DNA of 64,000 bases from Pseudomonas phage SW_PA2862_11_24. Positions 55,296 through 59,867 of this stretch are shown here, in pieces. The position numbers were made by a program, and so were the translations under genes. The notes beneath the pieces are model-generated. The model was not told where the DNA came from. It searched no databases and worked only from the letters and a program-made list of their open reading frames with translations. Location: sequence record PV574406.1; one strand, written 5' to 3'. Positions within the stretch are counted from its first letter, which is position 1, and every line of letters starts with the position of its first letter.

Positions 55296-55877
55296 TTACA
55301 AGAACGCCATGATTCTGTCTCTGTCTGCATGGCGGTACAGATTGAAGCAAGGCACGCCTCTAGAGGACGCCAGTTGCCAAGCGGTCCTAGTCCCGCCTTC
55401 TGGAATCCCGTTGTGGTCTGTCTTGCTCCAGCACACCAAGAACTTGCTAGGCGTGTTGAGATCGATTCCCAGCACTTGGAAAACGTTCCGAGTGTGGGCT
55501 CGTCTTGCGAACGGGCTTAGAACGGACCTCCCGTCATTTCTGACAGAGTTCCAAGCCGGATGAATTTGACTGGCAATGCCTTTAGCTTCTTCCCATTCAG
55601 CCGGCAACTCTTCCTCTGGCAGGATGGTGGCTCCGAGCGTCTCCGTTATCTGGTACTGGTTGAAGCCGGGAGACGGAAGATAGATTTCTGCCGTAGTCCC
55701 TCCTTTGTTATTGGATATATAATCCAGCCAGCCAGCCTCGAACGCTGAATCCGCTCCCTTCGCTCCTCCTGACCGAAGAATAAAACCTTGTTCTGCCAGT
55801 TTACGGCCTACCTCTCGAAGGATGCCCCATTCTCTGTTCGGAGTGTCCCTGCTTCCGACTCCTGTATAATATCTCAT
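55296..55877 (-). CDS. DprA/Smf-like Rossmann (SLOG-superfamily) nucleotide-binding protein
   Basis: YTGVGSRDTP and LRSGGAKGADSAFEAG match the DprA/SLOG GSR...SGxAxGxD pattern; C-terminal TRTAWQLASSRGVPCFNL. Confidence 0.35.
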   Translation of the reverse strand: MRYYTGVGSRDTPNREWGILREVGRKLAEQGFILRSGGAKGADSAFEAGWLDYISNNKGGTTAEIYLPSPGFNQYQITETLGATILPEEELPAEWEEAKGIASQIHPAWNSVRNDGRSVLSPFARRAHTRNVFQVLGIDLNTPSKFLVCWSKTDHNGIPEGGTRTAWQLASSRGVPCFNLYRHADRDRIMAFL

Positions 55878-56185
55878 CGTCTCACCATTTGTCCCAGTTC
55901 TCCGTATGTAATCCAGTGGTGACGATAATCCCCTTCTTGGTTGGTGTACTCCACTAACACCGGATAGAAGTTGTCTGCGTGGTCTATGTTTACCACCTTG
56001 CATTCACATCCTCTGGGAATAGTGTATCCATCGCTGCTCATGGTTAAGAGCATTCCCCGGTACACGTCTTTTATCTCTAGCTCACCTTCTCCAGACTCTT
56101 CAAACTTGAGTCTCAATTTCTCGATTATTTGAGCTTGCAAATAGAGAAGTTCGTACGCTGTTAGGTTGTCCAGATCAATAGACAT
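55874..56185 (-). CDS. hypothetical protein
   Basis: ORF overlapping the downstream start. Confidence 0.4.
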   Translation of the reverse strand: MSIDLDNLTAYELLYLQAQIIEKLRLKFEESGEGELEIKDVYRGMLLTMSSDGYTIPRGCECKVVNIDHADNFYPVLVEYTNQEGDYRHHWITYGELGQMVRR

Positions 56186-56186
56186 G

Positions 56187-56336
56187 TCACTCTCTCCCTT
56201 CTAGTTTCTTGAATGCCTTGTCCAGCTTGGCTAGATGCTTATCCAACTTGTCTAGCTTTTTATCCTGATAAAGCTGGAACGCCTCCGAGCCCGGGGCCAA
56301 CCAAGTCCCCTTATACTTAATTGCACCCCGGATCAT
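56187..56336 (-). CDS. hypothetical 49-aa Lys-rich protein
   Basis: RBS taggaggagatATG. Confidence 0.25.
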   Translation of the reverse strand: MIRGAIKYKGTWLAPGSEAFQLYQDKKLDKLDKHLAKLDKAFKKLEGRE

Positions 56337-56347
56337 ATCTCCTCCTA

Positions 56348-57021: not shown

Positions 57022-57031
57022 CCTCGCCTCC

Positions 57032-58720
57032 TTACACGCCGTTCTTAATCCGATAACGGATGGATTCCAGATCATTGTTCTTCAAATCTTCCGTGTCCCA
57101 CTTACCGTCTTTGAAGAACGTCCGCAGATGCCCGGTAGCTTCCTCTTCCTTCGACACATCATCCTTCAGTCGGAGGAACCGTCCATTGTCTTGGTCCCGG
57201 TACACTTTCAAGAGACCTTTAGCCGACTTCTTCTTGCTATCAGTCTTGGGGTCTTTGAAGATTGCAATGCCTTCTCCATTCACCTCGGTGTAGGTGGCCT
57301 TCACTGCGAACCCGAAGGTGTCTCGGGTATTGCACTGATAGGTGTAACTCCCAACTCCGAAGACCACGTTCAAGGATGCGAAACCTTTCTCCTTGAGCCG
57401 CTCCAAGATTTTGGCTGCCCGACGTGTGGTGATCGAATCCCCATAGATCAAACCGATATGAGAATCCAGCATCTTATAACCAGCTTCGTTTACAGTACCA
57501 CCGAAGGTTTCCCAAAGAACTTGGATAGCACCTTTCACCTGAGCCTCGCTAACTTCCTCTAGTTTATAGCCAACTACATACTCGTACTGGTCCCACTCGG
57601 TTGGAATGACCTTGAAATATTTATCTTCGAACTCTAGAACAAAAGCGTCATTTCCGTTGACCGCATCCATGATATCCCAGTGCTCAAGAGATTCAACAAC
57701 TTCCACATCGCCCAGTCCGCAGATAACCTCTACAGGATCGCCAGAATCGGGACGAACAACCAGCTTGCCGTCACGTTCCATGATCTGATCCTTGATGGAC
57801 GGCAGAATGTCAGTAAGCACGCCCCAGAAGTCGAAGCTGTCTGCCACGTAAGACAGAATACCACTCGGGAACTTACCCATCAGTTCAACAAGGAATCGAC
57901 GTTCTGCTTCCTCACGGCCACCTTTACCTTCTCCATCCTTCATTTCTTTCTCAATGCGGAGGATGTTACTAGTAGCTACAGCGTGTTCAGTCGCAGGAAC
58001 GGAGCAAGCTACCAAACCAGTCGCGTTATAGTAGTCCTCAGCATAAATAGCTGCTGCCAATGTGTCCGAACCTACGAACGAGGTCAAGTGACCAACACCA
58101 CTACGGGCTGCGTCTTCGATCCCGCTCATGCCCCGGGCACTGAAGTCGTGGAACTGAACAGACAGCAGGAAGTCGTCATAGCATCCAGTGTGATTCGCGT
58201 AGTATCGGCCCATAGCTGCGTATTCTGCGGCGATAGTGGCGTTAGTTGCGGTCTTCCAAGTCATAGCAGAAATCAGTGTTTCGTGGTAGTTCACCAGCCA
58301 GTAAAACTCAGGCAGGGTGTTCTTGATGGTGAGAACAGGCACACCCATCGGCACACTGACGCCTTCGGTAAGAGATTTTACCTCCAGAGGCAGATAACCG
58401 AGCTTGTGGAGGGCTCGAAGCTGCTCTACAGCTTCCATCTCACGGCCAAAGTAACCAGTCAGGAACCGGGCATACCGGCCAACTGCGTTCTCTTCGTCAG
58501 CCTTGAAGAAGCCTTCCCAAGACTCGACGATCTCCATCCAAGCAGCCCGCCCGCCGACCCACTTAAGAGTGCCGTCGTAGAAGTCGGTGGCGTGAGTCTT
58601 ACGATAAATTTTGTCGGAACGAGGAGTCAGGTTGCTGTAGACGAGCTGAGTTCCTTCCGAGTACATCGAGCCGTGCCCAATCTTATAGCCATCGGTGGAC
58701 AGGTGCGGCAGAATTTTCAT
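57032..58720 (-). CDS. nicotinamide phosphoribosyltransferase-family enzyme (NAMPT/NadV-like; candidate NARP1 Namat)
   Basis: LSTDGYKIGHGSMY, VVRPDSGDPVEV, IAIFKDPKTDSKKKSAKGLL closely parallel NAMPT motifs (human VFKDPVADPNKRSKKGRL). Confidence 0.65.
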   Translation of the reverse strand: MKILPHLSTDGYKIGHGSMYSEGTQLVYSNLTPRSDKIYRKTHATDFYDGTLKWVGGRAAWMEIVESWEGFFKADEENAVGRYARFLTGYFGREMEAVEQLRALHKLGYLPLEVKSLTEGVSVPMGVPVLTIKNTLPEFYWLVNYHETLISAMTWKTATNATIAAEYAAMGRYYANHTGCYDDFLLSVQFHDFSARGMSGIEDAARSGVGHLTSFVGSDTLAAAIYAEDYYNATGLVACSVPATEHAVATSNILRIEKEMKDGEGKGGREEAERRFLVELMGKFPSGILSYVADSFDFWGVLTDILPSIKDQIMERDGKLVVRPDSGDPVEVICGLGDVEVVESLEHWDIMDAVNGNDAFVLEFEDKYFKVIPTEWDQYEYVVGYKLEEVSEAQVKGAIQVLWETFGGTVNEAGYKMLDSHIGLIYGDSITTRRAAKILERLKEKGFASLNVVFGVGSYTYQCNTRDTFGFAVKATYTEVNGEGIAIFKDPKTDSKKKSAKGLLKVYRDQDNGRFLRLKDDVSKEEEATGHLRTFFKDGKWDTEDLKNNDLESIRYRIKNGV

Positions 58721-58776
58721 ATTATTTCCTCCTGTTGTGTTGAATGGGCCCAGATTATATCAATCTGGGCCTTATG

Positions 58777-58995
58777 TCAATACTCAATTTCTTCTACTGG
58801 TAGTGCCAGTACAGGGTAGACGCATGGAAGACGCAGTAATGGTTGCTTCTTGCTATGAAAGTCTTCCCAGAACTTCTCATGCAACACCTTGTACCTAGCG
58901 TCCAGTTCTTCCTTGGTATCGAACTCCTCTACCTTGACAACCCTCTTCTCTGGAGACGAGCGCTTATACTCCACAATCCATATACTCAAGCTCAT
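58777..58995 (-). CDS. hypothetical protein
   Basis: ATGA overlap. Confidence 0.35.
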   Translation of the reverse strand: MSLSIWIVEYKRSSPEKRVVKVEEFDTKEELDARYKVLHEKFWEDFHSKKQPLLRLPCVYPVLALPVEEIEY

Positions 58996-59867
58996 AGCTT
59001 CTCAGCCCTAGAGTATTCGACAGGAACAACCATTAGCTCCGGGTGGTTCTCTTGAGGGAGGGTATCAGATGTGTATATGCACCCGAAGTCGTCCAGTAGA
59101 CAATCAACACCCTTGCTGAAGATTCCGTGGGTAACGAACAGATCAGGCAACACTTCACTGTACCCTCTAAGAGCTTTAGCTACGCTACGGAATGTAGCGC
59201 CTCCGTCACAGATATCGTCCAGAACAAGTAGCGGGAGTTCAGGATTGATATCCGAAGGATTCAGAATTTCAAAGCCTTCGATTTTGCCAGTCTGGAGGTC
59301 TCGCTTCTTATTGCAACGGATGATGACTCTGGCTCCAGTTTCCTTTGCAAATTGTTCAGTCCTTTTAGTAGCTCCGATATCTGGGGCCACAATCTGGTAC
59401 TGTTCCCAATCTGACCGATTCAACAACCCACCGAATACAGATGACTGAGACACAACCTCTACATTATTGATTAGGTGCAGAGTGGCCTCACTGTGAGGGT
59501 CCACAACGATGACCCGATCATACCCAGCCGAGTTAATCAGATTGGCGAACACTTTCAGGCTAAATGCGTCCCCGGGATTGCATCGACGGTCTTGTCGGGC
59601 ATACGGGACATATCCCAAAAGAAGAGTCATGTGTGGTCGGCCCATTGCCGCTCGAATAGCCTCAGTGACATTGAGAAGTGCCATGATATCGTCACTGTTC
59701 TGAATCTGAGCTTTAACGTTCACAAAAGACCCTCCACTGGCATCAATTCCACTTACATTGACACCCACCTCACCGCCCGGGAATGTCCAGACCTTTGCCT
59801 CCTTCATAGGAAGTGCAAAACCCGGTTCTTCGATAGTAGCAAGGTAACCTGTTACGTAGCTAATCAT
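58992..59867 (-). CDS. ribose-phosphate pyrophosphokinase-family enzyme (Prs-like; candidate NARP1 Adps)
   Basis: YARQDRR, VIVVDPHSE, and PRPP-binding LLVLDDICDGGATF motifs of the Prs family; RBS taaggaggacatATG. Confidence 0.6.
   Translation of the reverse strand: MISYVTGYLATIEEPGFALPMKEAKVWTFPGGEVGVNVSGIDASGGSFVNVKAQIQNSDDIMALLNVTEAIRAAMGRPHMTLLLGYVPYARQDRRCNPGDAFSLKVFANLINSAGYDRVIVVDPHSEATLHLINNVEVVSQSSVFGGLLNRSDWEQYQIVAPDIGATKRTEQFAKETGARVIIRCNKKRDLQTGKIEGFEILNPSDINPELPLLVLDDICDGGATFRSVAKALRGYSEVLPDLFVTHGIFSKGVDCLLDDFGCIYTSDTLPQENHPELMVVPVEYSRAEKL

Follow-up and report, generated by a model that had tools for sequence, protein, structure and literature searches.

The 64,000-nucleotide stretch of Pseudomonas phage SW_PA2862_11_24 (record PV574406.1) that was analysed here, called the window below, carries on its minus strand three genes that most likely form a NARP1-AP operon, a reading to which we give a probability of about 0.85. 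The three genes are predicted to encode an ADP-ribose pyrophosphokinase (Adps), a nicotinamide ADP-ribose transferase (Namat) and a macro-domain phosphatase (Adpp), a combination that was named NARP1-AP in January 2026 (Osterman et al., bioRxiv 10.64898/2026.01.28.702374). Their positions are as follows:

58992 to 59867, minus strand: Adps, Prs-family protein and putative first NARP1 enzyme, 291 amino acids (PHROG 619, motifs, Table S1 of Osterman et al.)
57032 to 58720, minus strand: Namat, NAMPT-like protein and putative second NARP1 enzyme, 562 amino acids (PHROG 448, match to solved Namat)
56348 to 56827, minus strand: Adpp, putative Poa1p-like macro-domain ADPR-1''-phosphate phosphatase, 159 amino acids (PHROG 335, match to Gary Adpp)

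For these three proteins we infer the following enzyme activities and effect on defence. Once a host defence has cleaved NAD+, Adps would pyrophosphorylate ADP-ribose (ADPR) with ATP to form ADPR-PP, and Namat would combine ADPR-PP with nicotinamide, so that NAD+ is remade. The product of an aRES-type NAD+ phosphorylase, ADPR-1''-phosphate, would not be usable by Adps, and Adpp would first strip the 1''-phosphate to give ADPR. To judge from the entries of Table S1 given below, both this pathway and the membership of the phage are already published, and the finding is therefore real, but not new.

Phage and gene layout

The region between 55000 and 60300 (5.3 kb) is 99.7% identical to the Pseudomonas phages vB_PaeM_C2-10_Ab08 and Ab1 (HE983845 / NC_019918), which identifies the window as Pakpunavirus DNA, and about 120 related P. 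aeruginosa phages hold the same region at 80-95% identity. In a BLAST search with the whole window, it corresponds to a permuted version of an Ab1-type genome, with 92-99% identity to Ab1. The four genes called in the first-pass annotation, encoding Prs-like, NAMPT-like, macro-domain and DprA/SLOG-like proteins, were confirmed as minus-strand open reading frames (ORFs) at the coordinates that it gave. The module genes are closely packed, with several overlapping start and stop codons, and small ORFs of 72, 65-83, about 49 and 103 amino acids are interspersed among them. A scan for promoters and terminators gave no clear operon boundaries.

Gene neighbourhoods were compared in two samples, one anchored on NARP1 (80 viral contigs around Adps homologues, leaving 60 lineages after dereplication) and the other on the SLOG gene (47 lineages).

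The Prs-like protein sides with Adps

The Adps candidate matches PHROG 619 (E 2e-95) and Pfam Pribosyltran_N (E 8e-9), and is 100% identical to the HE983845 protein, which is entered as Adps (HE983845_00022) among the Table S1 entries of Osterman et al. (bioRxiv 10.64898/2026.01.28.702374). A comparison with Adps and with genuine Prs, which had been proposed as a check in the first-pass annotation, places the protein with Adps, both by score (35% identity and 126 bits against Adps of Vibrio phage Gary, 31% and 75 bits against E. coli Prs) and by motifs. The Adps-specific motif (D/E)PHS(D/E)..LINN, which replaces DLHAxQ, is present in the form DPHSE..LINN, and the KxR(D/N)xxTGxI loop in the form KKRDLQTGKI; both are common to the Adps of Gary and of Bacillus phage SPbetaL1, and both are absent from E. 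coli Prs. In addition, K187 of the window protein corresponds to K192 of Gary and is conserved.

Two alleles of Adps occur within Pakpunavirus. Among the sampled loci (L003-L007), the window/Ab1 type has 82-83% protein identity to four of the five (L003-L005 and L007), where identity is 97-99% for Namat and for the macro protein. A similar mosaicism (74-95%) is seen in the kinase gene upstream of Adps.

The NAMPT-like protein carries the Namat signature

The Namat candidate matches PHROG 448 (E 6e-194) and Pfam NAPRTase (E 9e-38). Among solved structures it matches SPbetaL1 Namat (9w5x/9w5w) best, with 381 bits, far ahead of bona fide Nampt (about 168 bits). Overall, it is 38-41% identical to Namats, with 41% and 341 bits against Gary Namat, compared with 30% and 126 bits against the Nampt of KVP40. 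Namat enzymes have the signature GS-X-phi-X-phi-X-phi-TRD, the aromatic residues of which clamp the adenine of ADPR-PP (PMC12774641). In the window protein this is GSYTYQCNTRD (residues 457-467), which fits at 10 of the 11 positions. A search for the motif matched every locus with full Adps and Namat genes, and gave no match in four SLOG-anchored loci whose Nampt-like gene is only 25-32% identical. The catalytic residue H246 corresponds to H243 of Gary and is conserved. The gene lies on the same strand as Adps, one 72-residue ORF away, which is the adjacency by which NARP1 is recognized.

Relative to the solved SPbetaL1 Namat, the window protein has about 55 additional residues (337-391). Judged by eye from the unaligned sequences, Gary Namat apparently also has added sequence at this place.

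The macro-domain protein and aRES

The aRES defence splits NAD+ with phosphate to ADPR-1''-phosphate, which NARP1 cannot use, and 15% of NARP1 phages have a Poa1p-like macro protein, Adpp, which dephosphorylates this product (Osterman et al., bioRxiv 10.64898/2026.01.28.702374). The same study showed biochemically that the Gary homologue converts ADPR-1''-phosphate to ADPR, and found each of the three genes to be required against aRES; the Gary operon was inactivated with Adps K192A, Namat H243A and Adpp H24A. The window macro protein has 41% identity over its full length to this validated Gary enzyme (E 5e-31), and its H23 corresponds to the catalytic histidine H24, which is thus conserved. 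Its profile matches are PHROG 335 (E 6e-61) and Pfam Macro, the latter with 21.1 bits, just under the cut-off of 22 bits. Among solved structures the best match is the bacterial macrodomain 5e3b (E 1e-10), and Poa1p (6lfu/6lfq) is matched with E values of 4e-6 to 3e-5. The gene is the second downstream of Namat, and thus lies within the two genes of NARP1 that the paper uses to assign Adpp.

In the part of Table S1 that covers these phages, vB_PaeM_C2-10_Ab1 is entered with HE983845_00022 as Adps, HE983845_00020 as Namat and HE983845_00018 as the macro protein, and the macro sequence given there for HE983845 is letter for letter the translation of window positions 56348-56827. The table further includes JG004, PaP1, PAK_P1, PAK_P2, PaoP5, K5 and C2-10 Ab02 and Ab08, and 'Pseudomonas phage' is matched 72 times (bioRxiv 10.64898/2026.01.28.702374). 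Hence, the idea in the first-pass annotation that the macro protein extends NARP1 holds, but not its expectation that such an extension would be undescribed, since these entries already place the phage within NARP1-AP. Pseudomonas aeruginosa is named 40 times, in a taxonomy-style form, in supplementary file 2, which we take to be the list of putative aRES systems of the paper; with P. aeruginosa in this presumed aRES table, the host context fits a counter-defence against aRES. In our independent sample, 8 of the 60 Adps lineages (13%) had a macro gene no more than 3 kb from NARP1, in line with the published 15%. The other published anti-aRES protein, aRad1, was absent, the best match of a hidden Markov model (HMM) built from its seven published sequences to all ORFs having an E value of 0.45.

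The macro protein could have a role apart from aRES, in clearing ADPR-1''-phosphate or cyclic phosphates that RNA repair or NARP1 itself leaves behind, or in removing ADP-ribose from DNA, RNA or protein, in which case its position near NARP1 would merely reflect shared early expression. We consider this improbable, despite several points that speak for it: genes for RNA ligase, P-loop kinase and phosphoesterase stand directly upstream, with the same trio beside the Gary NARP1-AP genes; the substrate of Poa1p is a by-product of tRNA splicing; ADPR-PP decays spontaneously to ADPR-cyclic-phosphate (bioRxiv 10.1101/2024.02.11.579819); and the bacterial macrodomain 5e3b, not Poa1p, is the top solved match. 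What speaks against it is the full-length similarity to an enzyme that converts ADPR-1''-phosphate to ADPR and is needed against aRES, together with the conserved catalytic histidine. Moreover, the genome annotation has no 2'-phosphotransferase of the Tpt1/KptA type, so that there is no evident phage source of Appr-1''p from RNA repair. Such roles are also compatible with a NARP1-AP function, as the two are not mutually exclusive.

Several observations weigh against assigning the three genes to NARP1-AP. Window Adps scores alike against SPbetaL1 Adps (76 bits) and E. coli Prs (75.5 bits), and its assignment to the Adps clade therefore rests on the motifs, the similarity to Gary and the published tree. 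In the Namat motif, position 7 (residue 463) is a cysteine, where a tyrosine or phenylalanine is usual and where both SPbetaL1 (Y396, which stacks on the adenine) and Gary have tyrosine; this cysteine is common to the Pakpunavirus loci and to most of the Pakpuna/Otago-like loci L008-L031. Namat enzymes also retain some PRPP-dependent formation of nicotinamide mononucleotide (NMN) in vitro, at about half the level of human Nampt (PMC12774641; PRPP, phosphoribosyl pyrophosphate). Furthermore, the macro gene is parted from Namat by a small ORF, whereas in Gary it lies between Adps and Namat. Identity to the validated enzymes is only 35-41% and the activities are read from sequence, which accounts for the uncertainty that we attach to the NARP1-AP assignment.

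The SLOG protein and the small ORFs

The remaining ORFs of the module are the following:

58777 to 58995, minus strand: 72-amino-acid ORF between Adps and Namat (PHROG 7663)
56824 to 57075, minus strand: 65-83-amino-acid ORF between Namat and the macro gene, likely start at 57021 (PHROG 6997)
56187 to 56336, minus strand: possible 49-amino-acid ORF downstream of the macro gene (internal ATG of a 91-amino-acid ORF)
55874 to 56185, minus strand: 103-amino-acid ORF, variable cassette (PHROG 8023)
55296 to 55877, minus strand: stand-alone SLOG-superfamily (DprA-like Rossmannoid) protein, 193 amino acids, neighbour of the module (PHROG 768, AlphaFold2 model)

These five ORFs share the strand of the operon, and are not demonstrably part of the pathway.

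The SLOG protein matches PHROG 768 (E 1e-68). In NC_019918 it is annotated as a DprA-like coding sequence of 235 amino acids, which runs over the 103-residue ORF; we prefer the 193-residue gene model, because all homologues start at MRYYTGVGSR and because the 103-residue ORF matches PHROG 8023 over its full length. An AlphaFold2 model built with an alignment of 119 sequences had a pLDDT of 94.6, while a single-sequence model (pLDDT 36) was unusable. The protein is predicted from this model to have a Rossmannoid SLOG fold. Its nearest fold neighbours are DprA (14.7), ShosA (13.5), the MoCo carrier protein (13.2), LOG (12.4) and YpsA (11.7), with the ThsA SLOG domain bound to 3'cADPR scoring 10.6 in the same comparison, and Foldseek agrees. 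Similarity to DprA at the sequence level is confined to the N-terminal GxGSR / SGGAxGAD region: the Pfam model of DprA (DNA_processg_A, PF02481) reaches 20.5 bits, against a cut-off of 29.6, over residues 7-48 only, and the match of the family profile to solved DprA structures is marginal (E 0.39-1.1). A match of the same profile to a guanylyltransferase (E 0.0065) was judged spurious.

The residues R35, G37, H106, H128, R130, N131, Q134 and GGT161-163 are invariant in this strongly conserved family, which points to an enzyme or to the binding of a specific ligand. A LOG-type phosphoribohydrolase was rejected, as the family has GGTRTAW and not the PGGxGTxxE motif with its catalytic glutamate. 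Among phages of Proteobacteria the family is common, with members in 901 of the 50,697 phage records, from phages of Pseudomonas, Escherichia, Aeromonas, Acinetobacter, Vibrio, Klebsiella and others, and a literature search found no experimental study of it. Candidate roles are the processing or sensing of ADPR derivatives, DNA binding as in DprA and ShosA (PMC11961720), and mimicry of a ShosA-type antitoxin; for the first of these, viral macro and SLOG proteins were predicted in 2022 to process soluble ADPR derivatives (Iyer et al. 2022, PMC9503650).

The small ORFs are limited to Pakpunavirus loci. The four have no Pfam match at E<=1, RyR/RyDEP-like domains included, and an HMM search showed no resemblance to aRad1. 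The start of the 72-residue ORF overlaps the stop codon of Adps, and its family, PHROG 7663, is of unknown function. The ORF at 56824-57075 matches PHROG 6997 over residues 19-83, with 66-71% identity among Pakpunavirus copies. The ORF of about 49 residues begins 12 nucleotides past the stop codon of the macro gene and is not annotated in NC_019918. The 103-residue ORF (PHROG 8023, E 8e-55) is masked in that record by the over-long DprA-like coding sequence; one Pakpunavirus locus has an identical copy (100%), whereas the copies in four others are only 37-39% identical, between flanking genes that are 89-99% identical. A small ADP-ribose-related accessory, as supposed in the first-pass annotation, was thus not substantiated, and nothing ties these ORFs to ADP-ribose.

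The SLOG gene is not a general NARP1 component

In the sample anchored on SLOG, no same-strand neighbours are commoner than the NARP1 genes: of the 47 lineages, 9 have NARP1 within 10 kb, and six of these within 3 kb, in at least three gene orders. Sampling from the other anchor gives a different picture, with a SLOG gene within 10 kb in only one of the 60 NARP1 lineages. No NARP1 gene was found within 10 kb in the SLOG loci L035 and L052, nor within 7 kb of the SLOG gene of Phapecoctavirus ESCO13. Both systems are present, 25-55 kb apart, in Klebsiella phage KpS8 (Vequintavirinae), in two other Enterobacteriaceae phage records and in Thalassavirus phages.

Bacterial homologues of the SLOG protein are rare, with 55 loci (L089-L143) in 185,579 bacterial species genomes, mostly of Sphingomonadaceae (Novosphingobium, Sphingobium). 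These loci have a conserved cassette with DUF736, DUF1173 and staphylococcal-nuclease-like (SNase) genes, and Adps, Namat and macro genes were found in none of the 55. We take such neighbours to be typical of conjugative elements, and the cassette looks like an accessory region of elements of this kind.

An obligate partnership of SLOG with NARP1 was rejected on the sampling from both anchors and on the Phapecoctavirus, Mydovirus and Thalassavirus genomes. We conclude that the adjacency seen here is lineage-specific and that SLOG is not a general component of NARP1. The partnership proposed in the first-pass annotation was not borne out, given the single NARP1 lineage of 60 with a nearby SLOG gene, the phages in which the two are unlinked and the bacterial relatives that lack NARP1.

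It is accordingly unlikely that the SLOG protein, perhaps together with the small ORFs, is a fourth component that converts or sequesters another ADPR-derived immune molecule, such as a cyclic ADPR isomer, and so feeds NARP1. The local arrangement would suit such a role, with all genes on the same strand, no predicted minus-strand terminator between Namat and the SLOG gene, and a SLOG start codon that overlaps the stop of the 103-residue ORF. The proximity in some SLOG lineages, the precedents of Adpp and RyDEP as feeder enzymes embedded in NARP1, and the processing of ADPR derivatives predicted for viral SLOGs (Iyer et al. 2022, PMC9503650) also favour it. However, about 80% of SLOG lineages, L035 and L052 among them, have no NARP1 gene within 10 kb, only one of the 60 NARP1 lineages has a SLOG gene within 10 kb, the genes are far apart in KpS8, the two other Enterobacteriaceae phages and Thalassavirus, the bacterial homologues on mobile elements have no NARP1 genes, and the nearest folds, DprA and ShosA, are DNA-binding.

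The sole strong terminator-like hairpin on the minus strand is at 54804-54787 (AGAGGGCGAAAGCCCTCT followed by a T-run), within a 167-residue ORF (54409-54912) and two genes downstream of the SLOG gene. Elsewhere, two viral contigs that are unrelated to each other have SPFH/Band-7 domain proteins next to NARP1 (L029, 6028-6879; L046, 12864-14741). Between SLOG and Adps, L046 also encodes a nucleotidyltransferase of the CCA-adding type and a P-loop protein of the AAA_28 (NadR-kinase-like) family.

RNA-repair-type genes upstream of Adps

Two genes lie directly upstream of Adps, and a third further up:

59877 to 60293, minus strand: P-loop kinase, polynucleotide-kinase-like (Pfam AAA_33, E 1e-8; PHROG 2071, E 3e-54)
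60304 to 61221, minus strand: Rnl1-like RNA ligase (Pfam RNA_lig_T4_1, E 2e-9; PHROG 562, E 9e-68)
62162 to 62716, minus strand: calcineurin-like metallophosphoesterase (Pfam Metallophos_2, E 4e-8)

This trio has the make-up of a heal-and-seal RNA repair set. Gary (L085, 9397-11356), an unrelated T5-like phage, has a corresponding trio a short way upstream of its NARP1-AP genes, with counterparts of the ligase (39% to gp176), the P-loop kinase (43% to gp177, in the same relative position) and the phosphoesterase (43% to gp178). On contigs of 145-149 kb, too, all three genes are no more than 10 kb from NARP1. Ligase, kinase and phosphoesterase each occur within 10 kb of NARP1 in 8 of the 60 lineages, and all three together in four; other metallophosphoesterases abut NARP1 in L008 and L040. 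This proximity may simply reflect a shared early 'damage-repair' region. Since ADPR-PP decays to ADPR-cyclic-phosphate (bioRxiv 10.1101/2024.02.11.579819), the phosphoesterase and the macro phosphatase could in principle recycle this dead-end product.

A 186-residue protein encoded at 63137-63697 has no Pfam match and is annotated elsewhere as a metal-dependent (HD) phosphohydrolase. Distant Otagovirus-like contigs have a homologue with 35-44% identity, together with the block of NARP1 and the ligase, kinase and phosphoesterase genes.

A broader proposal is that the three NARP1-AP genes are the core of a larger same-strand block for NAD+ and ADPR repair in Pakpunavirus-like phages, with the SLOG protein, the phosphoesterase or both as feeders. 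These would open cyclic ADPR signals or hydrolyse ADPR-1'',2''-cyclic phosphate, and the products would re-enter NARP1 through the macro phosphatase. We regard such a block as an improbable extension of the three-gene operon.

Classical NAD+ salvage

No NMN adenylyltransferase was detected in the window or in the whole of NC_019918: the best tblastn match with KVP40 Nmnat, E. coli NadR and NadD had an E value of 4.3, a search for HxGH-type motifs found none, and no such enzyme is among the NC_019918 annotations. This bears out the remark in the first-pass annotation that no gene for this enzyme is recognizable. Its preference for NARP1 (Adps and Namat) over classical NadV/NatV salvage is likewise upheld by this lack, by the Adps and Namat similarities and by the motifs.

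The reading that follows the GenBank style of annotation, in which the Prs-like protein would make PRPP from ribose-5-phosphate, the NAMPT-like protein would make NMN and a host adenylyltransferase would complete NAD+, is very unlikely indeed: it has on its side the database names 'ribose-phosphate pyrophosphokinase' and 'nicotinamide phosphoribosyl transferase', the 31% identity to E. coli Prs and the NMN-forming activity of Namat in vitro (PMC12774641), but the Prs-like protein bears Adps-specific motifs and is in the published Adps set, as entered in Table S1, the Namat score is twice as high to solved Namat as to Nampt with the adenine-clamp motif present, no phage NMN adenylyltransferase was found in the two sequences, and in the published survey Nmnat occurs in 94% of phages with a KVP40-type Nampt, while 97% of Adps-clade genes are beside Namat.

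Comparison with known systems

NAD+ depletion is among the commonest anti-phage strategies of bacteria, and NARP1 and NARP1-AP are the main known answers of phages to it. Since phage therapy against P. aeruginosa makes use of pakpunaviruses, there is practical value in the knowledge that they carry what is probably a full NARP1-AP, and that P. aeruginosa genomes are present in the published supplementary table taken to list aRES systems. Beyond the operon, interest lies in what the SLOG family, widespread in phages, does biochemically and in why RNA-repair-type genes recur beside NARP1.

The closest known system is NARP1-AP of Gary, which has the same three enzyme families (35% identity for Adps, 41% for Namat and 41% for Adpp) and in which the residues that kill the operon when replaced, K192, H243 and H24, are kept in the window as K187, H246 and H23. 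The two differ in gene order, which is Adps-Adpp-Namat in Gary and Adps-ORF-Namat-ORF-Adpp in the window, and at position 7 of the Namat clamp motif, tyrosine in Gary and cysteine in the window. Gary is a T5-like Vibrio siphovirus, whereas the window phage is a Pseudomonas myovirus.

The mycobacteriophage DyoEdafos has RyDEP in its NARP1 locus (bioRxiv 10.64898/2026.05.28.727677), and shares with the window the idea of an accessory enzyme that turns an ADPR derivative into ADPR. In contrast to that locus, no RyR-domain protein is detectable in the window, a Pfam search of the small ORFs at E<=1 having given nothing. The NARP2 system (Nampt and Nmnat/Nudix) of Vibrio phage KVP40 resembles the window module in its NAMPT-family enzyme and in the shared purpose of rebuilding NAD+. 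However, NARP2 requires Nmnat, and none was found in this phage genome; the identity of the window enzyme is 30% to the Nampt of KVP40, compared with 38-41% to Namats.

The SLOG protein differs from DprA, ShosA and other SLOG proteins in being a single domain of 193 residues, with a family-specific helical insert that carries the invariant His106, His128, Arg130, Asn131 and Gln134. Yeast Poa1p (ADP-ribose 1''-phosphate phosphatase, PDB 6lfq/6lfu) belongs to the same macro-domain subclass as the window Adpp, with a direct match of E 4e-6; Poa1p clears a by-product of tRNA splicing, whereas the phage enzyme is read as a probable counter-defence. Finally, the NARP1 operons of SPbetaL1 and coliphage Bas63 (bioRxiv 10.1101/2024.02.11.579819; PMC12774641) share with the window the Adps and Namat pair, the Adps motifs and the Namat clamp-helix motif, but are without a macro phosphatase, which the window is predicted to have.

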